This document shows, in pieces, positions 17,761 through 64,000 of a stretch of 64,000 nucleotides of DNA; position 1 is the first letter of the stretch, and every line of letters begins with the position of its first letter. Source of the DNA: Pecten maximus (lineage: Eukaryota); NCBI RefSeq assembly GCF_902652985.1, contig NC_047019.1, positions 14,190,097 to 14,254,096 on the forward strand, read 5' to 3'. The position numbers and the translations under genes were made by a program. Below the pieces are notes generated by a model, which searched no databases, had not been told where the DNA came from, and saw only the letters and a list, made by a program, of their open reading frames with translations.

Positions 17761-17798
17761 AAGCAATGAAATGAAATGTAAATTGGTCCTTTTCACAG

Positions 17799-18431: not shown

Positions 18432-18459
18432 TGCATTAGAAATAACTGTTGTGTTACAG

Positions 18460-18940: not shown

Positions 18941-19221
18941 GTATCTAAATGATGTTAATAGTGAAAGGTGAAAAAATCCATTATGACATTTCTTTATAAG
19001 TTTTGAAGATCAAATATTACAACAGAAAACATCACTACAAATTACAGTTTGATCAACATCTATTTATATATTAAGTATCTAACATATCGAGAAATCCTGA
19101 TGGTTCTGATGAAACATCCCTATAGTAGAAACATGTGAACAACACTCTCCAATAAATTGGACCATTGAATGAATCTCCATATTTGCTCACCGTTTTTTTT
19201 ACATATATGACCTGATTTATT

Positions 19222-20452: not shown

Positions 20453-22439
20453 ATCTTTAATTAACAAGTACTTTAGCCATTTTTACAAAACATGGCCAGG
20501 GTGACAGAAAATTCTTTGATGCCAATTGTTTAAGTTTATAAGCTGTATTTGATATGTCACCTATTTCAGTCATTTTAACAGTTATATAATTGAGGATTTA
20601 GAGTTACATAAAATGTACAGAATCCATTTTGAGCTTTATAGTATTACAGAAATTTCAAATTTTGAAGTATTGAAATGTGTAAACGTGTGTAATGTTTCAT
20701 TTAAAAGACCTAGTGTAGAAATTCTGTGCTGTAGCCATAGTATCTTTATAAATGTTAAGCTTGCTGTACAGTAGTGAGTTGACAAAAGAAGACAATTCAC
20801 GATTAATTTACATTTCCTGTGATTGATTTCACAGCCAGTATTGTAAATTAGATATTTGTTTTTAAATTTTTATTGAACATTTTTATGCACCTCAAGGTAG
20901 AAAAAATCGGAGGCGAATGCCTTGATACAGAACATTCCGTATGTTGTTAGTGATATTTAGATGTTCAACTACCATGTTGATATCGCAGCACTCTGTTAAC
21001 TTTAAACATTTCATAGTTTCCACTTAAGTCACAATATGATTTAATTGTGCATTCAACAAGCATTTTAATTGTCTTAAAATGTATGTTATCGGCCAATAGC
21101 ATAAAAATGACATTGCCGTTTGTATCGTTAGTTTCGACTGGCTGCTGCAGCGTAATAATTTCTAACTGAAAATATTTCATCATTGAAAATAAATTCAATT
21201 ATAAGGATTAACTTGGATACATGTTTTATGTTATGTAGCTATAACATTTCCGTAACATAACAGTTAATTAATCCTAAAATGAATATGTGAATAAATAATG
21301 AATTCTTTATTTAGAATTACAAAACACGATAACATCCTTGTAAACAAACAAATGTTTTTTGTTAAAGTGTTGCTGGAAGAACAACCTTTGAAATATGTTA
21401 CTACTAGCAGATGTGAGTAAACGGCTGTCTTTTATTTTCTGTCACATATTTAATATGTAATGATACCTGCGGCACAATTTGCCCCAATCTGTTTACATCT
21501 ATCAAGTCTTTAAGACAATAATCCAGAATGCTTGAAAATGTGTGAGGGATCAAGAAGAATTTATTTTCCTGTATATATTTTCTTATTGCGATTTTGACTC
21601 TTTTAAAAAGAGCAAAACCGTTGTTTTACAATAAAAGCTGTTGTTTTGACTGTAAATCTTAAACTGTTCAGATTGATAAATAGTATGAGCATTCCTAAAG
21701 GAAGCCAGGATAATGTTATTCAACCTCATGATCAAAGAGATGAGGGGTTTTCTTTAGGAATCACATTCTTTGTTCATGAATAATTTTGTTTTTTTTTCTA
21801 TTGTTTTTGTTATCAAAAAAAAGAAATGGAAGAAAAATAAAACACTAGAAAATGCCTGGACATCTATAGTTACGGACACAAACGTCTCCTTTGACATCAC
21901 AATCATCAGATTCATAAAAAATGAACCATCATAAGCATTCAATAATTAAAGTTTCTTGTCAACAGAGATTCATATATTTTTAAAACATTTAATGTTAAAA
22001 TTTTACAGCACATTATTTTTATTTTTGAACTTTGGAGATTACAAGATGTATTTTTTTAATTCTCATGTTATTTTTAAACATTTTATCATGTTAATGCAAT
22101 ATAATAAAGTGCCATTGATTCTAACAGATTTTTATACAAAACTAATATAGTGTATTATGTAATGTTTTTGAATTAATTATGATTTTTAATGATGTATATT
22201 TACATATTGTTTTAAATTCATTTTGGAAATTAAATTTTCTGTCACATTCCAATCTATAATTTGCATGTCTTTGTAAATAATTATGAAGAGGTTGAAGTTT
22301 TTGTACAGAATACTTTTGGAGCATGTTTGATTTACAGACCATCACTAAATGAATTGAAATCATTTTCAATTTACGTCATAGAAACTGGTCGATCCAAAAT
22401 CATCTTTTCTTGACACAATTCCTTCCGATGCCTTTGTAG

Positions 22440-22870
22440 AAATGTAGTCTCTCTGACAGACATTAAGACATTATTAATGAGATACGCACAATGTTGTTAA
22501 TTTAATTGTTATTTATATGTACCAGTTTTGAATGCAGCTACAGATTATTTGATGAGATTTTGTGATTGTTTTTATTAATTAGACAATGCAGCTTCAGATT
22601 ATTTGATTACATGTAGATTTTGTGATTGTTTTTATTAATTAGGCGGACTTTTATTCTTAAATGTATTTGATTTGTACAAAACATTCTTTCATTATTGAAA
22701 ACCACAATATGTAGAAATGTAGACTCTTTGGGCACAGTAACACTTTATCACTAATTACATACACACAATGTTGTTAATTTAATTGTTATATACAAGTTTT
22801 GGATGCAGCTAAAGATTATTTAATGAGATTTTGTGATTGTTTTTATTAATTAGACAGTTGTACAAAGCTT
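22440..22870. repeat. About 3 copies of a 150-bp AT-rich intergenic repeat
   Basis: The block 'aatgtag(t/a)ctct...caatgttgttaatttaattgtta...gattttgtgattgtttttattaattagaca' recurs. Confidence 0.7.
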
Positions 22871-23519
22871 TCATTATGGAAGTGTGGGAAAATTTGTCTT
22901 TTTGTATTGTAATAAAGAAAATAATAGTTGTTGACTTATAAGGAGAAGGGGCGCTTAATTTAGAATGCAGATTGATTCACGTTTGAAAATATTTGACTTC
23001 TGAAAGGGCTCATAAGTTACTGTAAAAACCTGTGTAGCACATTTGTTTGTTTGTTGTTGTTTTTTTGTACTGAAATAAAAGTTAAAGTTGGGTGTGTGCA
23101 AATTATACAGGTAGAAATGCTTTCAATTTTGTTTTTACAGAAAAAAAAAAGAAAAAAAAAGAGCTTTTCTTTTTATGGTTAATTTGAATTAAGTAAACAA
23201 GATGCAATTTCCTTTAAAACTATTACAAACACATAATGATAAAATCATTTTAACCATCAAGTATTTTGTAGAATAATTTAAAGCAAAGATTTGTGATAAT
23301 CTGTCTTAGTTCCATTTCAATACATCGATAGTGCCATTTTCATACATTGATTTTGGGACCTCCTGGACATCGTTTTTCGTTAAATTTTTTCATGCGCAAA
23401 GTACACAGATAGAAGGTTTTCTGCAGCATTTTCAGCCCCATAAAGTACCTGCGCAAATCACAGGTTTTTACAGTAACAGTAAAGTGGATTGAATTAGAAG
23501 GACTCATGAGTTAGAAGGT

Positions 23520-23700
23520 AGACTGGACTCGTAATTGGAAGGAAAGTAGACTTTCTGGAGTTAGAAGGAAAGTAGACTTTCTGGTGTTAGAAGGAAAGTA
23601 GACTTTCTGGTGTTAGAAGGAAAGTAGACTTTCTGGTGTTAGAAGGAAAGTAGACTTTCTGGTGTCAGAAGGAAAGTAGACTTTCTGGTGTTAGAAGTGG
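23520..23700. repeat. 26-bp tandem repeat, 6 copies
   Basis: The unit is 'agaaggaaagtagactttctggtgtt'. Confidence 0.9.
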
Positions 23701-27652: not shown

Positions 27653-28334
27653 ATGTTACTTCAGTACATTGTTATATTGTGTTATCAGTACACTATATAC
27701 CTGTTATAGTGTGTCTTCAGTACATTTCATATGTATAATTTAGCAGAATGCAGCCATGGTGAAAAAGTGCTAAATTAAACTTTCATCTGCAATACAATGT
27801 GTGCTTACAGTACATTTATCCTGCTAGTAGCATTACAAGGATGCCTTGTGTAACATGTAGGCCTACACATTATCATGAAGGCACCTGTCCATGGTAAGGT
27901 CACCATGTTTTTTTTCTCTCATGTGTACATTAAAGATATATGTCATATAATACTGAGTTGTTTTTGTTGTTGTTGTAGTTGGAAAAGTGTTGATGTAATT
28001 ATAAGTTCTAAGGAATATATTTAGGCCTACAGGTTTATTGTATAACTAAATCCTGTATACTCTATTCTGCCTCAGCTCTAGTAAAATGCAGTTTGCATGC
28101 TGGGTTCATAGCACTATTAATAGACAAGGTAATAGATGATAATGTAGTAGCTGGTGGCGACCACACTGCACGTCATAACGGAGTCCTGCCACATGCTATC
28201 CATGACTCATTACTAGTAATATGAAACTTCACCGAGTGAGCTAACACATCCCTAAATAAACTACAAAATATTTACAATCCAGTAGCATTTGTTCAAAGTG
28301 AGACGTTTTACACTGAGCTTGTGCATAATTAGGC

Positions 28335-28560
28335 AGCGTCGGTCATCTGTTAACAATTCCTTTAAATGGCTACTTCTCCTGAACGGCAGAATGAATTTTG
28401 ACCAAGTTTGATCTGAATCCTGGATACAAAAGCGTGGTGCCCATCATCTGTTAACATTTCCTTTAAATGGCTACTTCTCCTGAACGGCTGAATGAATTTC
28501 GATCAAATTTGATCTTAATCCCGGATGCAATGGCATGATGCCCAATAGGAAACCCATCTG
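28335..28560. repeat. Tandem duplication of about 115 bp, 2 copies
   Basis: The block 'catctgttaaca(a/t)ttcctttaaatggctacttctcctgaacggc(a/t)gaatgaattt' occurs twice. Confidence 0.8.
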
Positions 28561-34875: not shown

Positions 34876-37800
34876 CAAGAGGCCCATGGGCCTTAACGGT
34901 CATCTGACAAACACTTACACTTACAGCAGGGACACACCCCTCAATCCAGCATTATTACCATAAATTATTTATCGCAGCCAGTTATGTTTTAGATCAAATT
35001 TGGTTTTTATCCATTTAGCTTGTCCAGGAAGAGCAGCATCATAAAGCAAAATTTTAGCCAAGTTCCCATTTTTGGGGCATGCCCCTCTGTCCCAATAGGT
35101 CAGACAAGACTCATTTATATCAATTAGGATTGCCTTTCCCCAATGATGTTTCATACTAAATATAGTTGTAATCAATTAAGGCATTAAGGAGGAATTGCAT
35201 TTTAAAGAAATATTTAACCTAAGCGCTCCTTTTGCCCCATCTTTTTTTCCCCAGGGGTCAAACCTGTCTCATTAAAAAATATGATTGCCGTCACCTTATG
35301 TTTCACATCAAATTAGGTTGTAATCCACCAAAAGGTTAGGGAGGATTAGGATTTAACAGCAAATATTCACCAAAGTTCCCCTTTTGGGGCCCTGCCCCTC
35401 AGGCCCCAGGGGTCACACTAGCCTCGTTTATATAAAATATGACCACCCTTCCCAAAGGATGTTTCACACCATATTTCGTATTAATCCACCCAAGGGTTAG
35501 AGAGAAGTAGGATTTATAGCAAAAATTCACCAAAGTTCCCCTTTTGGGGCCCCGCCCCTCTGGCCCTAGGGGTCAAACCAGCCTCATTTATATAAAATAT
35601 GATTGTCCTCCTCCAATGATGTTTCACACCAAATTTGGTAATAATTCACTATGGGGGTTAGGAGGAGTAGTATTTTAAAGCAAAATTTCATCAAAGTTCC
35701 CCTTTTGGGGCCCTGGGCCCATATTCATAAAAAAACTTAAGTTAAGTATTTCACTTAAGAAAATACTTAAGTAGGACATTTGTACTTAAGTACTAAAATA
35801 AACTTAAGTATTTACTTAATTCAAGGTTTTATCTTAAGTTGTATTCATAAAACTACTTAAGCTTAAGTATTACTTAAGTTTTTACTTAAAGTTAAGTAAC
35901 GTCACGAGGATGTTTAACTTCCTTTAAAAATACTTAAGTAAATACTTAACAACTCAGGTGAAAGATGTCTTCACGAAATCGACAGAAATCAAATTGTTTT
36001 TAAGAAAAAAAATCATTAACTTCAGATTTTGTTGTATTCCATCATTTAAAACAAGATGTAAAGGTTTGAATCGAAGATGGAGGAGTCAATCTCACTGTCG
36101 TTAAGGCCCATTACGAAGTCAATACTACAACGACACGGAGCAATTGTAGTTTATAAGAAACATACCCATATACCAATCAAATTCTATTTAGATAAAACTT
36201 CATTTTTGTTTCTCTTGCTGACTTTGACAAAGCAGAAATACTGCCTCAAAGTTTTATTGTATCTTTTATTCATTAATCTAAAAAAATGTATATCTATAGA
36301 GTTCTTACCTGTGTATTAAAAAACATTGTGGTTACTTGTACTTTAACTTAAAACCCGTTCATGTGCATTCCAGCCCTGTCATGTAGTACTCCCCTGCTTT
36401 GATAACGAAACGAAAGTTTTAAATAACAGTTGATTGTTGTGACAGTTCTAGCATGCTTGGGGGTGGGATTTTACAGATCGTACAATGTAACTAGGGGTTT
36501 GATATGTACATTTCAACTGATGTTTGGTTTAGTGGAAATCAACTAAAACGTACTTGTTCTCCTTGACTCTACGATGAACACGATATGTGCATTTTTGGCC
36601 TGAACGACGAGGTTAGTCTAATTTTCGTGCATTCTTCCGACTCTCTCCTGATTAATACATTTGATCTGTTCAATCTGCCGGCAACCTGAACCCACGCTTG
36701 CCTATTTGCAGATGCCGACATTCCGTCCTTAAATCGTCCACGTATGACATGTTTACTTTCACTTGTAAACATGTACTAGCCTCACCATCGCCAGACATTC
36801 GTCCTTTGTCCAGTTTGGTCATCTCATCTTTTTTGCTGTTGCCATTTCCGGATTCTGATCGTCTTGGAATGCCAGGAACGCCGGTGCCAAATTTCACGTT
36901 TTACGAAAAACATCACGCAGCTACTTAACAACAACATAGCAACTACATGAAATACTTAAATGTTTATACTTAGCTAAGTATGTACTAAGTAAATACTTAA
37001 GTCGTTTATGAATAGTACTTAAGTTCAAACTTGAGTTTTATTTAACTAAGTAAAATATTTATAGTTAAGTATAACTTAAGTCAAACTTAAGTATTTAACT
37101 TAAGATTTTTTATGAATATGGGCCCTGCCCTTCTGGCCCCAGGGGCCACACCAGCCTAATTTATATAAAATATGACCACCTTCCCCCAATGATGTTTCAC
37201 ACCATATCTTGTTGAAATCCACCAAAGGGTTAAGGAGGAGTAGGATTTTATAGCAAAATTTCATCAAAGTTCCCCTTTTGGGGCCCTGCCCCTCTGGCCC
37301 CAGGGGCCACACCAGCCTCATTTATATAAAATATGACCACCCTCCCCCAATGATGTTTCACACAATATCTGGTTGAAATCCACCAAAGGGTTAAGGACGA
37401 GTAGGATTTTATAGCAAAATTTCATCAAAGTTCCCTTTTTTTGGCCCGTCACTCTGGCCCCAGGGCTCACACCAGCCTCATTTATATAAAATATGACCAC
37501 CCTCCCCCAATGATGTTTCACACCAAATTTAGTTGTAATCCACCAAAGGGTAAAGGAGGAGTAGGATTTTATAGCAAATATCCACCAAAGTTCCCTATTT
37601 AGGGCCCGCGAGGCCCCTCTGGCCCTAGGGGTCAGACCAGCCTCGTTTATATAAAACATGATTGTCCTCCTCCAACGATGTTCCACACCAAATTTTGTAA
37701 TAATCTACTTTTGGGTTTTGGAGGAGTAGTATTTTAAAGCAAAATTTCATCAAAGTTGCCCTTTTGGGGCCCCGCATCTCTGGCCCCAGGGGTCACACTA

Positions 37801-38477
37801 GCCTCATTTATATAAAATATGACCACCCTCCCCAAATGATTTTTCACAACATATCTGGTTGAAATCTACTAAAGGGTTAAGGAGGAGTAGGATTTTATAG
37901 CAAAATTTCATAAAAGTTCCCCTTTTGGGGCCCCACCCCTCAGGCCCCAGGGGTCACACTAGCCTCATTTATATAAAATATGACCACCCTCCCCAAATGA
38001 TTTTTCACAACATATCTGGTTGAAATCTACTAAAGGGTTAAGGAGGAGTAGGATTTTATAGCAAAATTTCATAAAAGTTCCCCTTTTGGGGCCCCGCCCC
38101 TCAGGCCCCAGGGGTCACACCAACTTCATTTATATAAAATATGACCGCCCTCCCCCAATGATGTTTCACACCAAATTTAGTTGTAATCCACCCAAGGGTA
38201 AAGGAGGAGTAGGATTTTATAGCAATATTCACCTAAGTTCCCTTTTCGGCGCCCCGCCCTTCTGGCCCCAGGGGTCAGACCAGCCTCATTTATATAAAAT
38301 ATGATTGCCCTCCCCCAATGATGCTTCAAACCAAATTTGGAAGTAATCCACCCAAGCGTTAATGAGGAGTAGCGTTTTGAAAGAAAAAGTTTACGGACGG
38401 CGCACGGCGGACGGCGGACGACGACGGACGAAGCACGATGACTATAGGTCATCCTGACCCTTTGGGTCAGATGACCT
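34876..38477 (+). mobile_element. Helentron-like element carrying a satellite array of about 160 bp (about 20 monomers) and a nested 1.4-kb TIR transposon. It sits in intron 2 of the small-protein gene.
   Basis: The 5' terminus is 'caagaggcccatgggcc'. The 3' end has (ggac)n at 38398-38431 and the hairpin 'aggtcatcctgaccctttgggtcagatgacct' ending at 38477. A 160-bp unit 'ccccttttggggccccgcccctctggccccaggggtcacac...' occupies 34990-38400. The element is inserted between A|A (T|T on the other strand). Confidence 0.65.
35715..37125. mobile_element. Nested non-autonomous DNA transposon with perfect 20-bp TIRs (gggcccatattcataaaaaa / ttttttatgaatatgggccc)
   Basis: It interrupts one 160-bp satellite monomer, and the flanks reconstitute the monomer with a 3- to 5-bp duplication (ctg/ccctg). 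The interior is rich in the 'acttaagt' palindrome. It has no recognisable transposase ORF. Confidence 0.65.
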
Positions 38478-39125
38478 AATAAATACTAATATTCTTTGAT
38501 CTCTGTCCTTTCCAGCAGTTACTTACATCTGGTAGCTCTAATATATCACCTGATGATAATATATCTTAACAAAAATTCATAATTGTAACATTTTATCTAC
38601 TAATAAATTGAATTAAAACCCGACATAACTCAAATCTGTAAGTACACTCCCTGCACTATATTTTTTTGCTTGGTGTGATGATGTTTAAGCTTGAGTGTTA
38701 ATTTGAACAAATGTGTGCATCGAGTTATTATATGTACTGTATGTTAAAAAGAAATGGTGTGTAAATGTGTGTAACTTACCAGGTAAATGAGTATGTATTT
38801 GTGGGTCATGTTCCAATTTTCGTCGATTTTGATCAACATGTATTCACCGGATTCACAGGAAAAGGCTTGTATAGGCTTGCATGTTGTCTAATCATTTTGT
38901 ACAATTTGTGAAATAGAATTTATTGAAATGAAACGATTAAAGCAAGTATTTTAATTTCGATAGTCCATCGCTGGTATGCAGTATAGAACAAGTATATACC
39001 ATTGTGTACATATCTCATGTTTTACTTTGAAATCTACAGCACTATTGATTAATCTCACAAATATAAATTTCAATATTAATGAAAAAACATTATCTAATAT
39101 GAACTGTTAACGTGTGTTGGTACAG

Positions 39126-39245
39126 TGACAATCGACTTTAGTGATGAAAATGCTGTTCTGACGGAGCTGTTCAGTAAACCCCCACAGGAGAACATGTTTG
39201 ATTTCTTCATGCCACGCAGCACATTTGTACTGGTACAGATTGACC
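39126..39245 (+). CDS. Small basic protein gene, exon 3
   Basis: The acceptor is gttggtacag|tg and the donor is gacc|gtaagt. The exon encodes VTIDFSDENAVLTELFSKPPQENMFDFFMPRSTFVLVQID. Confidence 0.65.
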
Positions 39246-39904
39246 GTAAGTCTCATTAAAAAAACACCATGTATTAGAAAGTATGTATGTGATTTTTTTA
39301 GTTAAGTGAAAAATGATTTTTGTTTGTTTGGGAGTTATTATGGTATGTAATTCAAAAGAGGCAACAACAATTTTTAACCCTCTTGTTGTTAATAAATGCC
39401 TCAGAAAATAAAATATTTTACATTATACAGTTTTGGGTTATCTCCCCTACATAGTAGTTTTGAGTGTGACCCAATCGAGTCAAGAAATACACAAATTAAC
39501 TTTTAAATTTTCCGTTAAAGCATTTTTAGATTTAAAGATTAAAAGAAAAATCTATCTTATTTACTATGAAAAAAAACAACAAAAAAACAAAACAAAACAA
39601 CAATTTTTTTAGAGATTTACAGTAATATATTTAAATAGATCACTTGAGAATTTCTGAATAACACTGTTCCTTGTCATATAAAATTGAGTTAATTTGTTTT
39701 CAAAGTGATTTAAAGATTAGAAAACATATCTTAGTTCCTATGAAAAAATAAGTTAAGGAATTAACTTATGCTTATGAATATTGAAGGCCCAGTACATTTT
39801 AATGCTCCTTAGAACAACTGAGAGATTTACACTAATCAACAGCTTGAGAACCCTGTTCATTGGTGATCTATATGTCAACTTATTTTCAATGTGTATTACT
39901 ACAG

Positions 39905-39979
39905 GAGGAGCAGATGGCAGCATCTTAAAAGTGACTCCCCTACTTACAGACTGGGAGAAGAAGTACCCTTTCCTGGAGA
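39905..39979 (+). CDS. Small basic protein gene, exon 4
   Basis: The acceptor is tattactacag|ga and the donor is ggaga|gtaagt. The exon encodes RGADGSILKVTPLLTDWEKKYPFLE. Confidence 0.65.
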
Positions 39980-40648
39980 GTAAGTTTGATGTAACACATT
40001 TCAATCAAGAAATAAGATTTGTAGGTCACAGGTGTGAGGACATACAAGTTAATGCCATTGGTGTACCCTTAAAGGTCTTCCAAATACTCAGTTTAGCTAG
40101 TAGCTTGATTGGAAACCAACCATCAATTTGCTTTAACAAATGACCTTGAATCAAGGCCTAGAGGCCAATATGATATTCAGATTTTAGCGTTCTAGCAGAA
40201 AGATGATCAAATTTATAAAAATGACCTTATGATCTTGATCAGCATTTCATGGTTTTAAACAAGGTGAACCTGTAGTTTTTCTGAATAGATGACCACACTT
40301 TAATTTGATCTGTTGCATGCAAGAGTGAATGTTGATTTGGCATTGCCCCAACCAGAGACCTATACATGCACTTAATTTCATATGCAAAATCAAAGTGAAA
40401 TAGTATGATGTTTGTTTATTGGATTTATCTCCCCCTGAACAACCAGGGTCATTTTGCATTGAGATCGCCTTAAATTGTAGTAGTTGGTGACTTCCTCACT
40501 GAACAACATATGGGATGCCTGTCGCATGCCATCAAAAGCAATAAGGGTAAAGCGTCTTGCCCTAGGACACAATAACAACAGTACAGACTGCAATTGCATG
40601 GATCATATTGCTGTGATAATTATTATTGGATACATGTGAAATGTTTAA

Positions 40649-41624
40649 CAAGAGGCCCAGAGGGCCTGTATTGCTCACCTGGATTTCATGAGATATGAAA
40701 CAAGAATGATGATTAATTATAAGTATATTTGTCACTGGTATTGCTATGTCAATATATCATAGGCATTTTATATGGGTACGTGAGGATTTTATGTCAAAAA
40801 ATGCATTAATCCATGAAATAAAATTAACTTTTGGCACAACCCCATAGGGATGCTACCACACAAATGTGAGTGATATCCATTGCTTAGTTTCAGAAAAGAA
40901 GTTGTTTAAACCAATTGACCCCTTTTGAACCCGCCCTCTGCACCCCTGGGGGAGTGGGGGTCAGTTCCTTCCTTTATAAAATTTTGAATCCCTACCCAAA
41001 AGGATGCTACCAGGCAAATATGAGCGATATCCTTTGCTTAGTTTCAGAAAAGAAGTTGTTCATATCAATTCAGCCAAATTGACCCCTCTTGGCCCCGCCC
41101 CTCAGGCCCCCGGGGGGGTCAGCCTCACCATTTGTACAATTTTGAATGCCCACCCAATAGTGATGCTACCAGGCAAATATGAGCGATAGCCATTGCTTGG
41201 TTTCAGAGAAGAAGTCGTTTATATCAATATAGCCAGATAGACCACATTTGGCCCCGCCCCTCAGGCCCCTGGGGGGTCAGCCCCATCATTTGTACAATTT
41301 TGAATCCCCAACCCATAGCGATGCTACCAGGCAAATATGAGTGATAGCCATTACTTGGTTTCAGAGAAGAAGTCGTTTATATCAATAGCGCAAAAATGAC
41401 CCCTTTTGGCCCCGCCCCAGAGGCCCCCAGGGGGTCAGCCCCATCATTTGTACAATTTTGAGTCCCCTACCCATAGGGATGCTTCTGACCAAATTTGGTC
41501 AAATTCTGATGTGTGGTTATGAAGACGTCAATTGTTGACGGACAGACGGACGACAGACGACGGACGGACGACAGACGCAACAGTATGGCATAAGCTCACC
41601 TTGGTTCTTCGGACCAGGTGAGCT
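40649..41624 (+). mobile_element. Helentron-like element copy 3, in intron 4 of the small-protein gene, ending 26 bp before the acceptor
   Basis: The 5' end is 'caagaggcccagagggcctgtattgctcacctgg'. It has 4 to 5 tandem units of about 150 bp, a (gacg/ggac)n tract, and the 3' hairpin 'agctcaccttggttcttcggaccaggtgagct'. The flanks are A|A. Confidence 0.7.
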
Positions 41625-42458: not shown

Positions 42459-43499
42459 GTCACAAATATTGAAGTTTCATTTACGGGTTTACTCTTTATT
42501 TATACCTAAGCAGATTTGCTTCATTTCACAGATTTCATGGCGAAGGTTCCACCCCTTCTGGTAGTTACTTAAGGTGTAAGCTATACCTTGTATGTTGTAC
42601 AAACCAACTGATTTGAAGGTAAAACACCTTTTGGTTGTTATGGCGTATATACTTGTACTGTATATAGAGAAAAAACTGCATGTTTGAAATAATTCCCATT
42701 TCTTTATTCACCTCTTACATATGTATGTACAAGTTGTGCTGCACATGTATGACTCCCATATATCAATATTTACTTCGAAGCTGAGTTCAGGTGACGTGAG
42801 GGGATGGACTTTATCTTTCAATCCAAGTCCTGCACTTCTGGTGATAGATGTTGACAGGGAGTTAACAAGCACCCTGAAACAGGAGTAGTCTGGTGACCTG
42901 CTCAAGGATTCCCTCGGTCTGCAGATAAACCTCTTCAGTCTAATGCTGCAACTCCAGTGACTTCAACATATTTCACTTACATGTCTTTCATTTTTAGCTT
43001 TCTCACAGGATCACATTTGTTCAATCAAACCTTTCATTAGGTCTAGTTTCACAAAAAGTTTTCTTACTATTAAAAATCTAGCACATGTTTTGCAGTTTGT
43101 CAGGTGTACATGAAAAAGAATGAAATATCTCCTTGGTATTATAGGACATATGGACAACCTAAAGACCAAAGGACAACTTATGGATGGCGTTGCTCCCCAT
43201 ATTCCTCTATAAATCAGATATTATGTATGAATGATTGATAAGATATACAACATTAAGTTATAGGTATAATTAAACAATAATAGATTATTTTTAGCTCTAT
43301 TCCATAACTCAATAAAATTAAGATCCACGCTCTCTCTAATAAATACTTCATATAAAAATATATGGCAGTATTTCTCCATTCCTCACAATCCAAAAGAATA
43401 TTAACTTCATTGATTCCTCTTAATCCATCGTTAAATCTTAGCTGGAGAATACATTCACTGATTCCTCCAAATCCATTGGTAAATCTGAGCTGGAGAATA

Positions 43500-43651
43500 C
43501 TAACTCTTTGATGTTTTCTTCTTCTTCTTTTGCTTTTTCTGTGGGCTATTTGAGGCCTTTTTCAGGGCATTGATGTCAGATTTGTCCTCAGGTGAGGGAC
43601 ATCCAAGAAAATACCTCCTCATTTCAACAGACACATCTTCTGCTGACAGAC
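43500..43651 (-). CDS. Large helical-protein gene, terminal exon (Lys-rich tail; stop TAG at 43500-43502)
   Basis: It has a strong acceptor ttgttgtctttctgtag|GT. The phase continues from the 44105 donor. The exon encodes GLSAEDVSVEMRRYFLGCPSPEDKSDINALKKASNSPQKKQKKKKKTSKS*. Confidence 0.55.
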
Positions 43652-48560: not shown

Positions 48561-48723
48561 CTGGAGTTTCCGTAGCAGTGGAAACTTGACGATTGACCTT
48601 TGTAGCCGGTCACGGTCTATATACTCCAACACTTGGTCTGTGGATGGCTGTTTCCATAGAGACGCCCCCATGGACTTCCTAATGGTGTGCTGCTCTGTGG
48701 CCTTTGACCCCCATAGGTATGGC
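48561..48723 (-). CDS. Large gene exon
   Basis: The acceptor is gtttcattgcccag|G and the donor is ctccag|gttggt. The exon encodes PYLWGSKATEQHTIRKSMGASLWKQPSTDQVLEYIDRDRLQRSIVKFPLLRKLQ. Confidence 0.65.
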
Positions 48724-49206
48724 CTGGGCAATGAAACAATTGTTTGTAGTGACAGAATTCCAAACCAGTGACATCAAGAATAGATTTTACATTTCATAAG
48801 TAATATTCTTTATGGGGACCTCACACCAGATGAAATTTTCATATTGTAAAAGTGAAACTGATAAGTTAAGGATGCATTCATTGAATTGTAAAATTAACAT
48901 GTAACTGGATAAGACATCCCTATATATAGATATGTACTTACCTGTACTCCTTCTTATTAACAGGTATCTGGACTAGACATCCCTATATATAGATATGTAC
49001 TTACCTGTACTCCTTCATGGAGACCTCATTGTTCTCATACAGGTGAAGAAGTCTCAGCAGTTTTTGGTCTGAAATTGAACACCAGAATGCAAAAGGTAAT
49101 GCAATCAGTAATATTGAGTAATTAATTGTCTTTTAATTAAAAAGAGAAATATGATAACCAGTATCAATGTATCATGACCTAGTTTACTGGTAGAAAACAA
49201 GCTACA

Positions 49207-52175
49207 ACCCTGTACATACCTGTTTGTGACAGGGTGGTACTGTAGGGCCCTGTACATACCTGTTTGTGACAGAGTAGCACTGTAGGGCCCTGTACATACC
49301 TGTTTGTGACAGAGTGGCACTATAGGGCCCTGTACATACCTGTTTGTGACAGGGTGGCACTGTAGGGCCCTGTACATACCTGTTTGTGACAGAGTGGCAC
49401 TGTAGGGCCCTGTACATACCTGTTTGTGACAGAGTGGCACTGTAGGGCTCTGTACATACCTGTTTGTGACAGAGTGGCACTATAGGGCCCTGTACATACC
49501 TGTTTGTGACAGGGTGGCACTGTAGGGCCCTGTACATACCTGTTTGTGACAGAGTGGCACTATAGGGCCCTGTACATACCTGTTTGTGACAGAGTGGCAC
49601 TATAGGGCCCTGTACATACCTGTTTGTGACAGAGTAGCACTGTAGGGCCCTGTACATACCTGTTTGTGACAGAGTGGCACTATAGGGCCCTGTACATACC
49701 TGTTTGTGACAGGGTGGCACTGTAGGGCCCTGTACATACCTGTTTGTGAAAGAGTGGCACTGTAGGGCCCTGTACATACCTGTTTGTGACAGAGTGGCAC
49801 TGTAGGGCCCTGTACATACCTGTTTGTGACAGAGTGGCACTATAGGGCCCTGTACATACCTGTTTGTGACAGGGTGGCACTGTAGGGCCCTGTACATACC
49901 TGTTTGTGACAGAGTGGCACTATAGGGCCCTGTACATACCTGTTTGTGACAGAGTGGCACTGTAGGGCCCTGTACATACCTGTTTGTGACAGGGTGGCAC
50001 TGTAGGGCCCTGTACATACCTGTTTGTGACAGAGTAGTACTGTAGGGCCCTGTACATACCTGTTTGTGACAGGGTGGCACTGTTGGGCCCTGTACATACC
50101 TGTTTGTGATAGAGTGGCACTGTAGGGCCCTGTACATACCTGTTTGTGACAGAGCAGTACTGTAGAGCCCTGTACATACCTGTTTGTAACAGGGTGGCAC
50201 TGTTGGGCCCTGTACATACCTGTTTGTGACAGGGTGGCACTGTAGGGCCCTGTACATACCTGTTTGTGACAGAGTAGTACTGTAGGGCCCTGTACATACC
50301 TGTTTGTGACAGGGTGGCACTGTAGGGCCCTGTACATACCCGTTTGTGACAGGGTGGCACTGTAGGGCCCTGTACATACCTGTTTGTGACAGAGTGGCAC
50401 TGTAGGTCCCTGTACATACCTGTTTGTGACAGAGTGGCACTGTAGGGCCCTGTACATACCTGTTTGTGACAGAGTGGCACTGTAGGGCCCTGTACATACC
50501 TGTTTGTGACAGAGTGGCACTATAGGGCCCTGTACATACCTGTTTGTGACAGGGTGGCACTGTTGGGCCCTGTACATACCTGTTTGTGACAGAGTGGCAC
50601 TGTAGGGCCCTGTACATACCTGTTTGTGACAGAGTAGTACTGTAGGGCCCTGTACATACCTGTTTGTGACAGGGTGGCACTGTAGGGCCATGTACATACC
50701 CGTTTGTGACAGGGTGGCACTGTAGGGCCCTGTACATACCTGTTTGTGACAGAGTGGTACTGTAGGGCCCTGTACATACCTGTTTGTGACAGGGTGGCAC
50801 TGTAGGGCCCTGTACATACCTGTTTGTGACAGGGTGGCACTGTAGGGCCCTGTACATACTTGTGTGTGACAGGGTGGCACTGTAAGGCCCTGTACATACC
50901 TGTTTGTGACAGGGTGGCACTGTAGGTCCCTGTACATACCTGTTTGTGACAGAGTGGTACTGTAGGGCCCTGTACATACCTGTGTGTGACAGGGTGGCAC
51001 TGTAGGTCCCTGTACATACCTGTTTGTGACAGAGTGGTACTGTAGGGCCCTGTACATACCTGTTTGTGACAGGGTGGTACTGTAGGGCCCTGTACATACT
51101 TGTGTGTGACAGGGTGGCACTGTAAGGCCCTGTACATACCTGTTTGTGACAGGGTGGCACTGTAGGTCCATGTACATACTTGTGTGTGACAGGGTGGTAC
51201 TGTAGGTCCCTGTACATACCTGTTTGTGACAGGGTGGCACTGTTGGTCCCTGTACATACCTGTTTGTGACAGGGTGGCACTGTAAGGCCCTGTACATACC
51301 TGTTTGTGACAGGGTGGCACTGTAGGTCCCTGTACATACCTGTTTGTGACAGGGTGGTACTGTAGGGCCCTGTACATACCTGTTTGTGACAGAGTGACAC
51401 TATAGGTCCCTGTACATACCTGTGTGTGACAGGGTGGCACTGTAGGTCCCTGTACATACCTGTTTGTGACAGAGTGGCACTGTAGGGCCCTGTACATACC
51501 TGTGTGTGACAGGGTGGCACTGTAGGTCCCTGTACATACCTGTTTGTGACAGGGTGGTACTGTAGGGCCCTGTACATACATGTTTGTGACAGAGTGGCAC
51601 TATAGGGCCCTGTACATACCTGTGTGTGACAGGGTGGCACTGTAGGTCCCTGTACATACCTGTTTGTGACAGAGTGGCACTGTAGGGCCCTGTACATACC
51701 TGTTTGTGACAGAGTGGCACTGTAGGGCCCTGTACATACCTGTTTGTGACAGAGTGGTACTGTAGGTCCCTGTACATACCTGTTTGTGACAGAGTGGCAC
51801 TGTAGGGCCCTGTACATACCTGTTTGTGACAGGGTGGCACTGTAGGCTCCTGTACATACCTGTTTGTGACAGAGTGGCACTGTTGGGCCCTGTACATACC
51901 TGTTTGTGACAGAGTGGCACTATTGGGCCCTGTACATACCTGTTTGTGACAGAGTGGCACTATAGGGCCCTGTACATACCTGTTTGTGACAGGGTGGCAC
52001 TGTAGGCTCCTGTACATACCTGTTTGTGACAGAGTGGCACTGTTGGGCCCTGTACATACCTGTTTGTGACAGAGTGGCACTTTTGGGCCCTGTACATACC
52101 TGTTTGTGACAGAGTGGCACTGTAGGGCCCTGTACATACCTGTTTGTGACAGGGTGGCACTGTAGGCTCCAAGGT
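49207..52175. repeat. 40-bp satellite A, about 74 monomers, inside an intron of the large gene. Each minus-strand monomer contains a donor-like aacag|gtatgt and an acceptor-like tgtacag.
   Basis: The plus-strand unit is 'ccctgtacatacctgtttgtgacagRgtggcactgtaggg'. The minus strand is open in all 3 frames, giving the 892-aa ORF artefact. Confidence 0.95.
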
Positions 52176-52248
52176 ATATGCCTATATGACTGGAGGTAGA
52201 GCAGTCTGGACGAAGCTCCACAAGTGTCATCAGGAGATCCACCAAACA
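52140..52248 (-). CDS. Large gene exon (tentative). Its last roughly 35 nt and its GTATGT donor are the first monomer of the 40-bp satellite.
   Basis: The acceptor is attattatagag|TG and the donor is aacag|gtatgt at 52139. The 109-nt exon is phase-compatible with both the upstream (52775) and downstream (48723) exons. It encodes VFGGSPDDTCGASSRLLYLQSYRHIPWSLQCHPVTN. Confidence 0.4.
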
Positions 52249-52774
52249 CTCTATAATAATATATCAACTTATATAGTCATCATCTTGTTTGTTTGAAGTA
52301 TACACATTAAACAATAGAAAACTTACATCATCTCATCAGGACACATCTTCTTTAACAGATAAAATTACAACTGAAAGTCATTTTTAACTAATACCGCTAT
52401 TATTTGTGATCATGGTAGCTACATGTACATGACATCTATATTTTTTTGAAAATAGCACCATTGTATTTGCTATCCCTCAAAACCATTATATAAAGATTGA
52501 CAGCTTAATCTGACAATATCTCAATATTAGTCAACCAGTATTCCATTATGTTTCTATAGTTACGGTTATTGAAATACTTGATGCTTTTCTCTCTAGTATA
52601 ACACTTAACAAACAATAACTTGCTCTGTGCCACAAATGTGACAATTTTTTTTAAATATTTTGTTTGTTTGTTTATCTATAATTTATCTACCATGATATAA
52701 TCTAGTTTATCAAAAAGTTGATGCTTTCATGAAATACACAACACCAAATAAAGCCATATTTCTTATTAACTCAC

Positions 52775-53015
52775 CTTTGACCTCAGATCCTGCCTCGTCA
52801 AGTATGATCGACAAAAACATTGAGTGACTGAGTACCATGTCAAAGATAGTGTTGGGAGTCAGATCAAGTGTCTCTCCACTTGAGTACACCATCTTCACCA
52901 GCGTGTTGAGGATCTTATGAGTACTGGCATTGGAGTACTGGGATCGTAAACATGCTTTCACAAAGGACGAGAAATCTTTATGTACCTCAGATGGCTTCAA
53001 TTGTTGGATGACATC
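52775..53015 (-). CDS. Large gene exon
   Basis: The acceptor is tttgtatacag|G and the donor is caaag|gtgagt. The exon encodes DVIQQLKPSEVHKDFSSFVKACLRSQYSNASTHKILNTLVKMVYSSGETLDLTPNTIFDMVLSHSMFLSIILDEAGSEVK. Confidence 0.7.
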
Positions 53016-53830
53016 CTGTATACAAACATGGATAATATCATTAATTACTAACATCTTATAATTATATACAAACATGGATAATATCATTAATTACTAATAT
53101 CTTATAATTATATACAAACATGGATAATATCATTAATTACCAACATCTTATAATTATGTACAAACAAGGATAATATCATTAATTACTAACATCTTATAAT
53201 TATGTACAAACATGGATAATATCATTAATTACTAACATCTTATAATTATGTACAAACATGGATAATATCATTAATTACTAACATCTTATAATTATGTACA
53301 AACATGGATAATATCATTAATTACTAATATCTTATAATTATGTACAAACATGGATAATATCATTAATTACTAACATCTTATAATTATGTACAAACATGGA
53401 TAATATCATTAATTACTGTCCTGTATACAAACATGGATAATATCATTAATTACTAACATCTTATAATTATGTACAAACATGGATAATATCATTAATTACT
53501 GTCCTGTATACAAACATGGATAATATCATTAATTACTAATATCTTATAATTATATACAAACATGGATAATATCATTAATTACTAATATCATATAATTATG
53601 TACAAACATGGATAATATCATTAATTACTAATATCTTATAATTATGTACAAACATGGATAATATCATTAATTACTAATATCTTATAATTATATACAAACA
53701 TGGATAATATCATTAATTACTAACATCTTATAATTATGTACAAACATGGATAATATCATTAATTACTAATATCTTATAATTATGTACAAACATGGATAAT
53801 ATCATTAATTACTAATATCATATAATTATG
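53016..53830. repeat. 47-bp minisatellite, about 17 copies, starting exactly at the 3' splice site of exon 52775-53015. Units include acceptor-like 'tgtatacag' variants.
   Basis: The unit is 'acaaacatggataatatcattaattactaacatcttataattatRta'. Copies at about 53400 and 53500 carry 'cctgtatacaaacatgg', whose minus strand reads ccatgtttgtatacag|g. Confidence 0.9.
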
Positions 53831-54394
53831 AATGGCCATTTTGTCATGATACCTGGGCCCTGAAGAGTAGTTCAATGTTTCTTTATTTGGACTCTTGACA
53901 ACCGACAGAAACCTTCAATTGTGAAATACACTCAAAAATAGAAATGTTGTAAAGTGCTGTTTTCAATGAGGTAATGAATTTTTCCAAGAACAAGCTCTGG
54001 TATAAGCCCACACATGTCCATCGCTTTTTAAGCAAAAACTTCTAACATCAACTATTTTATTGTCCTTCAGCATTTGGTCAAATGTTATGTGTTGAAAACA
54101 GATAACATATTTACATTTGTGCCACATTTCCCTATTGAAACAATGCCAAGAGGCAGTTGCTACCATACATCTATAACACCCAGTGGGTCATGTGACATTT
54201 AAAAAAGGCAGTAATTCATTTGTTGGTTCAGTTTTCAAAACTGATAAAAATGGTTAGGCGATTTAAGTATTGAACAGTTGTTTTAATGTTGTTATATGGT
54301 AGTAAGATGTATGTTGGACATGTACAAATGTCATGGGAACCAGTTGTTCATCATTAAACATTTACATGATGATTTCTTGCTTTGTATGTTGCCA

Positions 54395-54470
54395 GGCCAA
54401 ACAAGATTATATTGAACTCACCTGACTGGCCAGGCCAAACAAGATTATATTGAACTCACCTGACTGGTTT
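54395..54470. repeat. 38-bp tandem duplication spanning the donor site of exon 54460-54716
   Basis: 'ggccaaacaagattatattgaactcacctgactgg' occurs twice. The second copy places a duplicate 'cag|gtgagt' donor 38 nt into the intron. Confidence 0.85.
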
Positions 54471-58232: not shown

Positions 58233-58330
58233 CCATCATTTCGTTCTGTAATCATTAGATACCTTTTCTGATGGTAACCATGACAATACGTTCTGTAATC
58301 ATTAGATACCTTTTCTGATGGTAACCATGA
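58233..58330. repeat. 47-bp tandem duplication spanning the donor site of exon 58310-58461
   Basis: 'gttctgtaatcattagataccttttctgatggtaaccatgacaataY' occurs twice. This duplicates the last 33 nt of the exon plus the gtatct donor about 47 nt into the intron. Confidence 0.85.
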
Positions 58331-58461
58331 CAATATGTACTTGATGACCCCACTCTCTAGCTGATCTCCATGGCAAGCGTTCAGCATACACACCAGAGGG
58401 AGAGGCTGTATTTGGGAGTGGAAAAGGTCAAGGACAATTCCAGACATGTAGTTTTTCACAC
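58310..58461 (-). CDS. Large gene exon
   Basis: The acceptor is ctactcaacag|GT and the donor is gaaaag|gtatct. The exon encodes VKNYMSGIVLDLFHSQIQPLPLVCMLNACHGDQLESGVIKYILSWLPSEK. Confidence 0.6.
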
Positions 58462-59280: not shown

Positions 59281-62200
59281 AGTGACTGTATCAACACAAT
59301 TGTCATGTAAGTACTATGACTGTATCCATACATCCACACAATTGTCATGTAAGTACTATGACTGTATCCATACATCCACACAATTGTCATGTAAGTACTA
59401 TGACTGTATCCATACATCCACACAATTGTCATGTTAGTACTATGACTGAATCCATACATCCACACAATTGTCATGTAAGTACTATGACTGTATCCATACA
59501 TCCACACAATTGTCATGTAAGTACTATGACTGTATCCATACATCCACACAATTGTCATGTTAGTACTATGACTGTATCCATACATCCACACAATTGTCAT
59601 GTTAGTACTATGACTGTATCCATACATCCACACAATTGTCATGTTAGTACTATGACTGAATCCATACATCCACACAATTGTCATGTAAGTACTATGACTG
59701 TATCCATACATCCACACAATTGTCATGTAAGTACTATGACTGTATCCATACATCCACACAATTGTCATGTAAGTACTACGACTGTATCCATACATCCACA
59801 CAATTGCCATGTAAGTACTATGACTGTATCCATACATCCACACAATTGTCATGTTAGTACTATGACTGTATCCATACATCCACACAATTGTCATGTTAGT
59901 ACTATGACTGAATCCATACATCCACACAATTGTCATGTAAGTACTACGACTGTATCCATACATCCACACAATTGTCATGTTAGTACTATGACTGTATCCA
60001 TACATCCACACAATTGTCTTGTACGTACTATGACTGTATCCATACATCCACACAATTGTCATGTAAGTACTACGACTGTATCCATACATCCACACAATTG
60101 TCATGTAAGTACTATGACTGTATCCATACATCCACACAATTGTCATGTTAGTACTATGACTGAATCCATACATCCACACAATTGTCATGTAAGTACTACG
60201 ACTGAATCCATACATCCATACAATTGTCATGTAAGTACTATGACTGTATCCATACATCCACACAATTGCCATGTAAGTACTATGACTGTATCCATACATC
60301 CACACAATTGTCATGTAAGTACTATGACTGTATCCATACATCCACACAATTGTCATGTAAGTACTATGACTGTATCCATACATCCACACAATTGTCATGT
60401 AAGTACTATGACTGAATCCATACATCCATACAATTGTCATGTAAGTACTACGACTGAATCCATACATCCACACAATTGTCATGTAAGTACTATGACTGTA
60501 TCCATACATCCACACAATTGTCATGTTAGTACTATGACTGAATCCATACATCCACACAATTGTCATGTAAGTACTACGACTGAATCCATACATCCATACA
60601 ATTGTCATGTAAGTACTATGACTGTATCCATACATCCACACAATTGCCATGTAAGTACTATGACTGTATCCATACATCCACACAATTGTCATGTACGTAC
60701 TATGACTGTATCCATACATCCACACAATTGTCATGTAAGTACTATGATTGTATCCATACATCCACACAATTGTCATGTAAGTACTATGACTGTATCCATA
60801 CATCCACACAATTGTCATGTAAGTACTATGACTGTATCCATACATCCACACAATTGTCATGTTAGTACTATGACTGTATCCATACATCCACACAATTGCC
60901 ATGTAAGTACTATGACTGTATCCATACATCCACACAATTGTCATGTAAGTACTATGACTGAATCCATACATCCACACAATTGTCATGTAAGTACTATGAT
61001 TGTATCCATACATCCACACAATTGTCATGTAAGTACTACGACTGTATCCATACATCCACACAATTGTCATGTAAGTACTACGACTGTATCCATACATCCA
61101 CACAATTGTCATGTTAGTACTATGACTGAATCCATACATCCACACAATTGTCATGTAAGTACTATGACTGAATCCATACATCCACACAATTGTCATGTTA
61201 GTACTACAACTGTATCCATACATCCACACAATTGTCATGTTAGTACTATGACTGTATCCATACATCCACACAATTGTCATGTTAGTACTATGACTGAATC
61301 CATACATCCACACAATTGTCATGTAAGTACTACAACTGTATCCATACATCCACACAATTGTCATGTAAGTACTATGACTGAATCCATACATCCACACAAT
61401 TGTCATGTTAGTACTATGACTGAATCCATACATCCACACAATTGTCATGTTAGTACTATGACTGAATCCATACATCCACACAATTGTCATGTTAGTACTA
61501 TGACTGAATCCATACATCCACACAATTGTCATGTAAGTACTATGACTGAATCCATACATCCACACAATTGTCATGTTAGTACTATGACTGAATCCATACA
61601 TCCACACAATTGTCATGTTAGTACTATGACTGAATCCATACATCCACACAATTGTCATGTAAGTACTATGACTGAATCCATACATCCACACAATTGTCAT
61701 GTTAGTACTACAACTGTATCCATACATCCACACAATTGTCATGTACGTACTATGACTGAATCCATACATCCACACAATTGTCATGTTAGTACTATGACTG
61801 TATCCATACATCCACACAATTGTCATGTAAGTACTATGACTGAATCCATACATCCACACAATTGTCATGTTAGTACTACGACTGAATCCATACATCCACA
61901 CAATTGTCATGTAAGTACTATGACTGTATCAATACATCCACACAATTGTCATGTTAGTACTATGACTGAATCCATACATCCACACAATTGTCATGTTAGT
62001 ACTATGACTGAATCCATACATCCACACAATTGCCATGTAAGTACTATGACTGAATCCATACATCCACACAATTGTCATGTTAGTACTATGACTGAATCCA
62101 TACATCCACACAATTGTCATGTAAGTACTATGACTGAATCCATACATCCACACAATTGTCATGTAAGTACTATGACTGAATCCATACATCCACACAATTG

Positions 62201-64000
62201 TCTTGTAAGTACTATGACTGAATCCATACATCCACACAATTGCCATGTAAGTACTATGACTGAATCCATACATCCACACAATTGTCATGTAAGTACTATG
62301 ACTGTATCCATACATCCACACAATTGTCATGTAAGTACTATGACTGAATCCATACATCCACACAATTGTCATGTTAGTACTACAACTGTATCCATACATC
62401 CACACAATTGTCATGTTAGTACTATGACTGTATCCATACATCCACACAATTGTCATGTTAGTACTATGACTGAATCCATACATCCACACAATTGTCATGT
62501 TAGTACTATGACTGAATCCATACATCCACACAATTGCCATGTAAGTACTATGACTGTATCCATACATCCATACAATTGTCATGTAAGTACTATGACTGTA
62601 TCCATACATCCACACAATTGTCATGTAAGTACTATGACTGTATCCATACATCCACACAATTGTCATGTAAGTACTATGATTGTATCCATACATCCACACA
62701 ATTGTCATGTAAGTACTATGATTGTATCCATACATCCATACAATTGTCATGTTAGTACTATGATTGTAACCATACATCCATACAATTGTCATGTTAGTAC
62801 TATGACTGAATCCATACATCCATACAATTGTCATGTAAGTACTATGACTGTATCCATACATCCACACAATTGTCATGTAAGTACTATGACTGTATCCATA
62901 CATCCACACAATTGTCATGTAAGTACTATGATTGTATCCATACATCCACACAATTGTCATGTAAGTACTACGACTGTATCCATACATCCACACAATTGCC
63001 ATGTAAGTACTATGACTGAATCCATACATCCACACAATTGTCATGTTAGTACTATGACTGAATCCATACATCCACACAATTGTCATGTTAGTACTATGAC
63101 TGAATCCATACATCCACACAATTGCCATGTAAGTACTATGACTGTATCCATACATCCACACAATTGCCATGTACGTACTATGACTGTATCCATACATCCA
63201 CACAATTGTCATGTTAGTACTATGACTGAATCCATACATCCACACAATTGTCATGTTAGTACTATGACTGAATCCATACATCCACACAATTGCCATGTAA
63301 GTACTATGACTGTATCCATACATCCACACAATTGCCATGTAAGTACTATGACTGTATCCATACATCCACACAATTGTCATGTAAGTACTATGACTGTATC
63401 CATACATCCATACAATTGTCATGTAAGTACTATGACTGTATCCATACATCCACACAATTGTCATGTTAGTACTATGACTGTATCCATACATCCACACAAT
63501 TGTCTTGTAAGTACTATGACTGAATCCATACATCCACACAATTGCCATGTAAGTACTATGACTGTATCTATACATCCATACAATTGTCATGTAAGTACTA
63601 TGACTGTATCCATACATCCATACAATTGCCATGTAAGTACTATGACTGTATCTATACATCCATACAATTGTCATGTAAGTACTATGACTGTATCCATACA
63701 TCCATACAATTGTCATGTAAGTACTATGACTGTATCCATACATCCACACAATTGTCATGTAAGTACTATGACTGTATCCATACATCCATACAATTGCCAT
63801 GTAAGTACTATGACTGTATCTATACATCCATACAATTGTCATGTAAGTACTATGACTGTATCCATACATCCACACAATTGTCATGTAAGTACTATGACTG
63901 TATCCATACATCCATACAATTGCCATGTAAGTACTATGACTGTATCCATACATCCACACAATTGTCATGTAAGTACTATGACTGTATCCATACATCCATA
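59281..64000. repeat. 40-bp satellite B, about 118 monomers, running to the window edge
   Basis: The unit is 'atccatacatccacacaattgtcatgtaagtactatgactgt'. It resembles satellite A in the acatacc/acatcca...ttgtgaca/ttgtca blocks. The 877- and 688-aa ORFs are artefacts. Confidence 0.95.

Follow-up and report, generated by a model that had tools for sequence, protein, structure and literature searches.

The 64,000-nucleotide stretch of Pecten maximus contig NC_047019.1 analyzed here (positions 14,190,097 to 14,254,096; referred to in full as the window) carries on its minus strand a large part of the gene URB1/NPA1, one intron of which is almost entirely filled by a 40-bp minisatellite whose first monomer contains the end of the preceding exon and the authentic 5′ splice site (donor). 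In an exhaustive search of representative proteins, the peptide encoded by four minus-strand exons was 100% identical to residues 1443-1630 of XP_033740037.1, a P. maximus protein of 2,261 aa annotated as "nucleolar pre-ribosomal-associated protein 1-like". The Pfam domains Npa1 and NopRA1 are present in the full protein, and the gene is therefore URB1/NPA1, an essential ribosome-assembly gene; the 188-aa exon peptide alone gave no Pfam domain, the two domains lying elsewhere in the protein. An exact k-mer map onto the window placed residues 836-2261 on 18 exons running from 59200 to 43503 (Table 1).

Exons 53015-52775, 52250-52140, 49068-49005, and 48723-48561, when joined, translate in frame as ECLVDLL...GAYSATLSQT/DQKLLRLLHLYENNEVSMKEYR/PYLWGSK, within residues 1443-1630 of XP_033740037.1. 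A previous model-made annotation of the letters alone (the sequence-only reading) had proposed an exon at 52140-52248. This exon is real and its 3′ end was correctly assigned, but it starts 2 nt further upstream (acceptor tattatag/AG), and the frame had been misread. The accompanying claim that no other model is phase-compatible with the exons at 52775 and 48723 fails on two counts, namely, the wrong frame and the skipped 64-nt exon. Joining 52248-52140 to 48723 does yield an open, in-phase frame, which explains how that claim arose, but the product encodes VFGGSPDDTCGASS..., a peptide found in no homologue.

The array was recovered as a single Tandem Repeats Finder (TRF) call at 49208-52166 (period 40, 74.0 copies, 93% matches, 0% indels). 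Cut in register on the minus strand, it resolves into 74 monomers of exactly 40 nt each, followed by "ggg" and unique sequence, which places it as a head-to-tail array with a unit of minisatellite size (about 10-100 bp). The consensus 40-mer, GGGCCCTACAGTGCCACTCTGTCACAAACAG/GTATGTACA, matched 70 times with at most three mismatches, compared with 0 matches expected from shuffles, and no other copy lies in the window outside the array. Monomer 1 spans the genuine exon-intron boundary, with the authentic donor CAG/GTATGT inside it (GT at 52139-52138), and the splice site is reiterated throughout the intron, about 95% of which is repeat derived from the exon junction. Monomers differ from one another by 6.3% on average, and the exon frame remains open for 768 nt into the array. 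The array is real. Both TRF and the in-register cutting bear out the view from the sequence-only reading that the exon end and its donor coincide with monomer 1 of a 40-bp array, and dozens of phased decoy donors do lie in the intron. Several details of that description need correction: the exon-derived part is 31 nt rather than 35, and 73 monomers rather than about 74 lie beyond monomer 1. The donor- and acceptor-like motifs said to recur in each monomer do so for GTATGT (74/74) but not in every copy for CAG/GTATGT (68) or TGTACAG (72). Openness in all frames holds for the consensus but not for the actual array, which has 4, 7, and 1 stop codons in its three sense frames.

The URB1 loci of Mizuhopecten yessoensis, Argopecten irradians, Ylistrum balloti, an ark clam (Tegillarca), a mussel (Mytilus), a unionid (Potamilus), and an abalone (Haliotis) were compared with that of Pecten, and the junction was aligned at the nucleotide level for 8 molluscs. 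The 31 exonic nt encode G-A-Y-S-A-T-L-S-Q-T, and about 150 URB1 homologues (molluscs, annelids, arthropods, echinoderms, hemichordates, and vertebrates) retain the motif L-G-A-Y-x-A-T/S-L-S-x-x-D-Q..L..L..YE across the junction. Among the scallops and the ark clam, the exon end is near-identical in nucleotides as well. When up to eight mismatches were allowed, the full 40-mer consensus was found once each in the Mizuhopecten, Argopecten, Ylistrum, and Tegillarca URB1 loci, only at the orthologous junction, which represents a single-copy progenitor of the repeat. All seven compared loci have an intron at the same position and in the same phase; its first bases are GTATGTAC in Pecten, Ylistrum, and Tegillarca, and Pecten and Tegillarca have the ninth base, A, in common as well. 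In addition, position 18 of the consensus is T (ACT, Thr), as in the exons of Mizuhopecten, Ylistrum, Tegillarca, and Mytilus, while the Pecten exon now reads ACC. Exon and intron are hence ancestral, and the array descends from a 40-bp duplication of the junction; judged from these alignments, descent is shown to run from exon to array, with an ancient intron and an array that the relatives lack. A URB1 fragment in metagenome contigs (GCA_013332895.1, ERZ23486757) has both exons fused and is intron-free at QT/DQ, the coding sequence therefore being independent of the repeat; either that lineage lost the intron, or the mollusc line gained it later. At the same junction Argopecten carries a perfect 29-bp x 2 duplication (14 exon nt and 15 intron nt), an independent, early-stage analogue of the Pecten array. 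The orthologous intron of Ylistrum balloti (about 21300-22700 of its locus) holds a different array, with units of about 25/50 bp (atgtgtcactactttattac / atgtgtcaatacttacgac), which starts about 40 nt downstream of the donor. The start of the Potamilus intron (gtaagtacaggacctaca) resembles the Pecten monomer boundary, probably by chance.

Three other accounts of how the array came to lie at this boundary were weighed against these comparisons. Exonisation, in which a pre-existing satellite beside the gene had its first monomer recruited as exon end and donor, was one of two options offered by the sequence-only reading, and the bare anatomy, with the exon end equal to monomer 1, is what it would produce. 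It is refuted by the conservation of the motif and by the single-copy junctions in relatives: the 31 nt code for amino acids that about 150 metazoan URB1 proteins conserve, they are near-identical in scallops and an ark clam lacking a 40-bp array, and the intronless animal represented by the metagenome contig still encodes GAYQASLHQTDQK contiguously. The segment that a repeat-derived exon should lack in orthologues without the repeat is present in all mollusc loci examined, and exonisation is left with practically no probability, whereas the second option, a junction that seeded the array, is supported by the conserved motif, the single-copy junction, and the old intron. Equally negligible is the proposal that the duplication gave birth to the intron. 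In the Rogers model, introns are gained through tandem duplication of an AGGT-containing exon segment, and reiterated AG/GT signals are common to that model and to Pecten. The large share of the intron that is junction-derived repeat, as well as the missing intron in one metagenome-contig animal, would suit such a birth. In outgroups, though, where the model has no intron at the site, an intron of unrelated unique sequence is found at exactly this codon and in this phase (Potamilus, Mytilus, Tegillarca, Haliotis, and the three scallops), which excludes creation by duplication. Pecten, moreover, keeps a 139-nt unique tail and an ancestral intron start common to Tegillarca (GTATGTACA) and, as GTATGTAC, to Ylistrum; the intron pre-dates the duplication and was enlarged by it, not created. 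An assembly artefact, in which the array or its length and higher-order pattern stems from a mis-assembled shorter repeat, is very improbable, if slightly less so than the other two. Tandem arrays are error-prone in assemblies, and a comparable donor-spanning array in Mizuhopecten (about 23453-23610 of its locus) ends in an assembly gap. The Pecten array, on the other hand, has structured variants and local higher-order repeats (lag 4 and lag 9) rather than random noise, four scallop genomes assembled independently of one another contain similar arrays, as does that of an abalone, and an artefact would touch the copy number and not the existence of the array. Regarding a dispersed satellite family, no further copy of the 40-mer was found in the 64-kb window or in the URB1 loci of the relatives, the two sets of sequence that were searched.

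For an array seeded by the junction, the starting point would have been an ancient phase-1 intron beginning ...CTGTCACAAACAG/GTATGTACA. In the Pecten lineage a 40-bp segment, comprising the last 31 exon nt and the first 9 intron nt, would then have been duplicated in tandem. The unit starts with GG, and GG also follows the array directly, which is the microhomology expected for a slippage-type tandem duplication and suggests replication slippage or a microhomology-mediated event as the putative mutational mechanism. Unequal exchange or slippage would have raised the copy number to 74. The exon-bearing monomer 1 recurs without any change in monomers 5 and 9, its private variants A3, G4, and C18 included, and the array has a 4-monomer periodicity in monomers 1-13 and a 9-monomer periodicity in its distal part. 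These exact copies and the lag-4 periodicity indicate a recent re-duplication of the end nearest the exon, with the exon's own 31 nt inside it; 160-bp (4-monomer) duplications would have copied the exon-bearing monomer again, and such local higher-order duplications suggest ongoing turnover of the array. The exon copy would meanwhile be held by protein-coding selection, while the 73 intronic copies would drift (GGAGCC to GGGCCC), the downstream copies presumably being young or homogenised enough for all to retain GTATGT and 68 to retain the full CAG/GTATGT.

The consequences for splicing follow from the likeness of the donors. Donors 5 and 9 match donor 1 at every position from -31 to +9, and 67 more donors do so from -3 to +6; CAG/GTATGT, with 8/9 consensus positions, scores no lower than the median (7) for the gene's 17 authentic donors in the window. 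Because the donors are identical, sequence is unable to single out donor 1, and only position can. A correct mRNA would require the most upstream donor alone, selected either as the first met after the exon or by exon definition from the upstream acceptor. We infer that donor 1 is used exclusively in Pecten, and first-come choice of the most upstream donor would be the best-supported mechanism. Use of a decoy adds 40 nt per monomer, and two-thirds of the decoys shift the frame; donors 4, 7, ... 19 would insert 40 to 240 aa, in frame and free of stops, into the conserved motif. Folding of the exon with the first four monomers gave no significant RNA structure (z = -1.6), and structural masking of the decoys is thus not indicated. 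The pyrimidine tract of the acceptor-like TGTACAG is 52% pyrimidine, compared with 70% at the real acceptor.

Junction-spanning architecture of this kind is already known from human and amphioxus genes. In intervening sequence 7 (IVS7) of human F7, the first monomer of a 37-bp variable number tandem repeat spans the boundary, and 50 constructs with mutagenesis demonstrated that only the upstream donor is used, by 5′-to-3′ oriented scanning; the boundary minisatellites named in that work are F7, IFI6 (6-16), CBS, LMNB2, and PDGF (Borensztajn et al. 2006, PMC1557585). F7 and Pecten are alike in having pseudo-donors with the same sequence as the authentic donor, in unit length (37 and 40 bp), and in the need for the upstream-most donor. 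In contrast, F7 has 5-9 copies, 4 exon nt per unit, and a weak donor (UGG/gugggu), while Pecten has 74 copies, 31 exon nt per unit, and the strong CAG/GTATGT; silence of the pseudo-sites rests on mutagenesis in F7, and for Pecten we infer it. At the exon 2/intron 2 boundary of IFI6, the authentic site is followed by 25 pseudo-sites, the first two of which are used constitutively (PMC1557585). IFI6, CBS IVS13, and Pecten URB1 all have serial splice donors supplied by a minisatellite directly after an exon. The unit of IFI6, a minisatellite that reportedly goes back to Turri, Cuin and Porter (Nucleic Acids Research, 1995), is 12 nt long, hence every site is in frame, in contrast to every third copy only for the 40-nt Pecten unit. 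Amphioxus has the "mirage" minisatellites, found in Adh3, TnC, the globins BflGb6/9, and PGBD5, which have units of 10 to about 160 bp, may number several per gene, evolve in concert within a cluster, and leave normal splicing undisturbed (PMC3087553, PMC3902484). Like the Pecten array, they are tandemly duplicated exon-intron boundaries in an invertebrate, but about 2-6 copies have been reported and both 5′ and 3′ boundaries are involved, as opposed to nearly donors only (18 vs 1) and 55-82 copies in scallop URB1. No report of junction minisatellites in scallops, other bivalves, or molluscs at large, or of a 40-bp Pecten satellite, was found in the searchable literature. Structurally, the Pecten array is a junction minisatellite that differs from the known examples in its size (74 copies), in the amount of exon per unit (31 nt), and in its host phylum.

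Taken as a whole, intron 52139-49069 of P. maximus URB1/NPA1 very probably holds a junction-spanning ("mirage"-type) minisatellite that was seeded by the junction and whose donor 1 is the one used, a reading to which we assign a probability of roughly 0.85. Several points weigh against it. The copy number comes from one assembly, and for the putative use of donor 1 the evidence is the RefSeq model together with the conserved reading frame. Oriented scanning was established in mammalian cells rather than in molluscs (PMC1557585), and minor isoforms from in-frame decoys, as in human IFI6 and CBS, are possible.

Donor-spanning duplications are not limited to this junction. Three other URB1 donors in the window are each spanned by a tandem duplication that supplies one decoy donor (Table 1). 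Each donor and acceptor was scored for whether the 14-mer around it recurs exactly further downstream. Such copies accompanied 4/17 donors and 0/17 acceptors in Pecten, 3/32 and 0/31 in Mizuhopecten, 6/32 and 0/31 in Argopecten, and 1/32 and 1/30 in Ylistrum, while Potamilus had none (0/31 and 0/31). For the four scallops pooled, the counts are 14/113 donors vs 1/109 acceptors (Fisher p = 7e-4). Among TRF arrays of the four scallop URB1 genes, 18 of 56 intron-or-donor arrays span a donor, compared with about 5.8 expected when seeds are placed uniformly in array-collapsed introns (binomial p about 7e-6); a single array spans an acceptor. In other molluscs, the corresponding counts were 0/24 in Mytilus, 1/13 in Tegillarca, and 2/12 in Haliotis. 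The donor-spanning arrays of Argopecten irradians URB1 include 60 bp x 82, 38 bp x 55, and 78 bp x 25, with about 1-4% mismatch. At the junction orthologous to the one carrying the Pecten array (GAYGATLSHT/DQK), Haliotis asinina has a 79-bp x 12 array with 61 exon and 18 intron nt per unit (locus 35729-36672). A degenerate remnant of its unit lies deeper in the same intron, at about 36781-36810. At another junction, KTSQ/D (residue 1437 of XP_033740037.1), donor-spanning duplications arose independently in Pecten (38 bp x 2) and in Mizuhopecten, where two to three copies of 33 bp pass gradually into a 19-bp x 22 array (27896-28387 of the locus). If the first donor wins, a duplicated donor is harmless, while a duplicated acceptor adds sequence to the mRNA, and the asymmetry is as selection predicts. 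These enrichment statistics come from one gene in few species, with a test chosen after the data were seen, and the donor-array enrichment in scallops is a lead, not a result. A hot spot at the array junction itself is statistically insecure, the overlap between Pecten and Argopecten being expected by chance (about 0.9 expected) and the Haliotis recurrence having a p of about 0.06.

The array might instead be functional, that is, a multi-donor element maintained by selection, either as a set of regulated alternative 5′ sites, with every third monomer in frame and 40 aa added per three monomers, or as a platform for the U1 small nuclear ribonucleoprotein that aids splicing or transcription through the repeat. 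We consider this unlikely. What speaks for it is that donors 4, 7, 10, 13, 16, and 19 yield stop-free in-frame products, that positions +1 to +9 are invariant in 73 copies, that scallop URB1 has about 3 times as many donor-spanning arrays as expected, that the same junction carries arrays in Argopecten and Haliotis too, and that the first two pseudo-sites are in use in human IFI6 and CBS (PMC1557585). Yet most of the decoys would shift the frame, and the in-frame insertions would strike a motif that is kept throughout Metazoa. No array is present at the junction in Mizuhopecten, Mytilus, Tegillarca, and Potamilus, and in an unbiased wrap-around alignment of seven independent arrays the donor 9-mer was not consistently the least variable, with variability ranks of 8/40, 47/60, 19/38, 1/43, 14/78, 19/37, and 52/79. 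A constraint on the pseudo-donors that anchor-based slicing, a biased method, had suggested found no support in that alignment. Somewhat less improbable, though still doubtful, is a broader form of non-neutrality, in which scallop donor-anchored minisatellites reflect mutation targeted to 5′ sites, re-seeding from a protected exon master, or strings of U1 sites that help expression; it would explain the 18/56 arrays against about 6 expected, the 55-82 copies, and the independent origin at one junction in Pecten, Argopecten, and abalone.

On the preferred reading of a junction-seeded array, an essential gene copes with a row of 73 strong decoys immediately after its authentic donor, and this tolerance points to position-based (first-come) donor choice in a mollusc, as mutagenesis showed for human F7. 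The Pecten array is a large, clean example of a rare, already described repeat type that looks common in scallops. What would be new, if it proved to be genome-wide, is the occurrence of several donor-spanning duplications per gene, an 18:1 asymmetry of donors over acceptors, an excess of about 3-fold, and recurrence at the same junction in three genera. Should the pattern hold, it would mean that introns can lengthen by kilobases starting at their own 5′ junction, and it would serve as a warning to gene predictors and splice-aware aligners about reiterated exon ends in bivalves. If the non-neutral reading were true, scallops would offer a natural system, with hundreds of serial identical donors, for studies of 5′ splice-site choice.

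Table 1. Positions of the array, the surrounding exons, and other repeats (window coordinates unless marked as locus coordinates)
Feature	Position	Strand	Description
URB1 exon before the junction exon	52775..53015	minus	Residues 1438-1517 and first base of codon 1518; donor AAG/GTGAGT; k-mer map, translation
Junction exon, 111 nt	52140..52250	minus	Encodes (E)CLVDLLMTLVELRPDCSTSSHIGIYLGAYSATLSQT, ends in phase 1; k-mer map, 100% identity
64-nt exon	49005..49068	minus	Encodes (D)QKLLRLLHLYENNEVSMKEY(R); donor CAG/GTAAGT; k-mer map, translation
Next exon	48561..48723	minus	Encodes PYLWGSKATEQH...LLRKLQ; k-mer map, translation
40-bp minisatellite	49208..52170	minus	74 monomers (52170-49211), indel-free, and terminal GGG
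Monomer 1	52131..52170	minus	Last 31 exon nt (GGAGCCTACAGTGCCACCCTGTCACAAACAG) and first 9 intron nt (gtatgtaca)
Exon-proximal 160-bp higher-order repeat (4 monomers)	51691..52170	minus	Lag-4 minimum, monomers 1-13
Array intron	49069..52139	minus	3,071 nt, phase 1; 2,932 nt array and 139 nt unique 3′ tail
Unique intron tail and real acceptor	49069..49207	minus	..ttcaatttcag/AC; 70% pyrimidine in last 23 nt
47-bp x 2 perfect tandem duplication	58242..58335	minus	Spans donor, last exon base 58310; 26 exon and 21 intron nt
38-bp x 2 perfect tandem duplication	54391..54467	minus	Spans donor, last exon base 54460; 8 exon and 30 intron nt
63-bp x 2 tandem duplication, 93% identical	48893..49016	minus	Spans donor of the 64-nt exon (49005); 11 exon and 52 intron nt
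Argopecten URB1 donor-spanning arrays	5104-10268, 15925-18007, 38700-40665 (locus)		38 bp x 55 is 15925-18007
Repeat family of about 158-161 bp	14610-15115, 19400-19747, 35298-35715, 37120-38372, 40956-41483		

Several other repeats lie in the window. A 46-bp x 18 array (53021-53830, minus strand) stops 5 nt before the acceptor AG of the exon starting at 53015; its last monomer supplies the pyrimidine tract and branch region (..ccatgtttgtata/cag/GATGTC), and it abuts the acceptor without crossing it. A 42-bp x 112 array (59290-63998) occupies the intron that precedes exon 59200-59129 and continues beyond the edge of the window; it may be donor-anchored, like the 38-bp x 55 array in the orthologous Argopecten intron, with its donor outside the window. 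A 48-bp x 2 duplication (43406-43500) starts at the URB1 stop codon or just after it (coding sequence end 43503). The repeat family of about 158-161 bp (GGGGTCAGCCCC...TTGTACAATTTTGAATCCCC...) occurs in both orientations and in short arrays, and we take it to be reminiscent of the bivalve repeats of about 160 bp associated with miniature inverted-repeat transposable elements. Downstream of URB1, an 18-bp x 355 array (1-6304) and a 45-bp x 25 array (7502-8615) were observed, and long plus-strand open reading frames at 9299-9748, 15830-17431, and 18388-18948 suggest a second gene.

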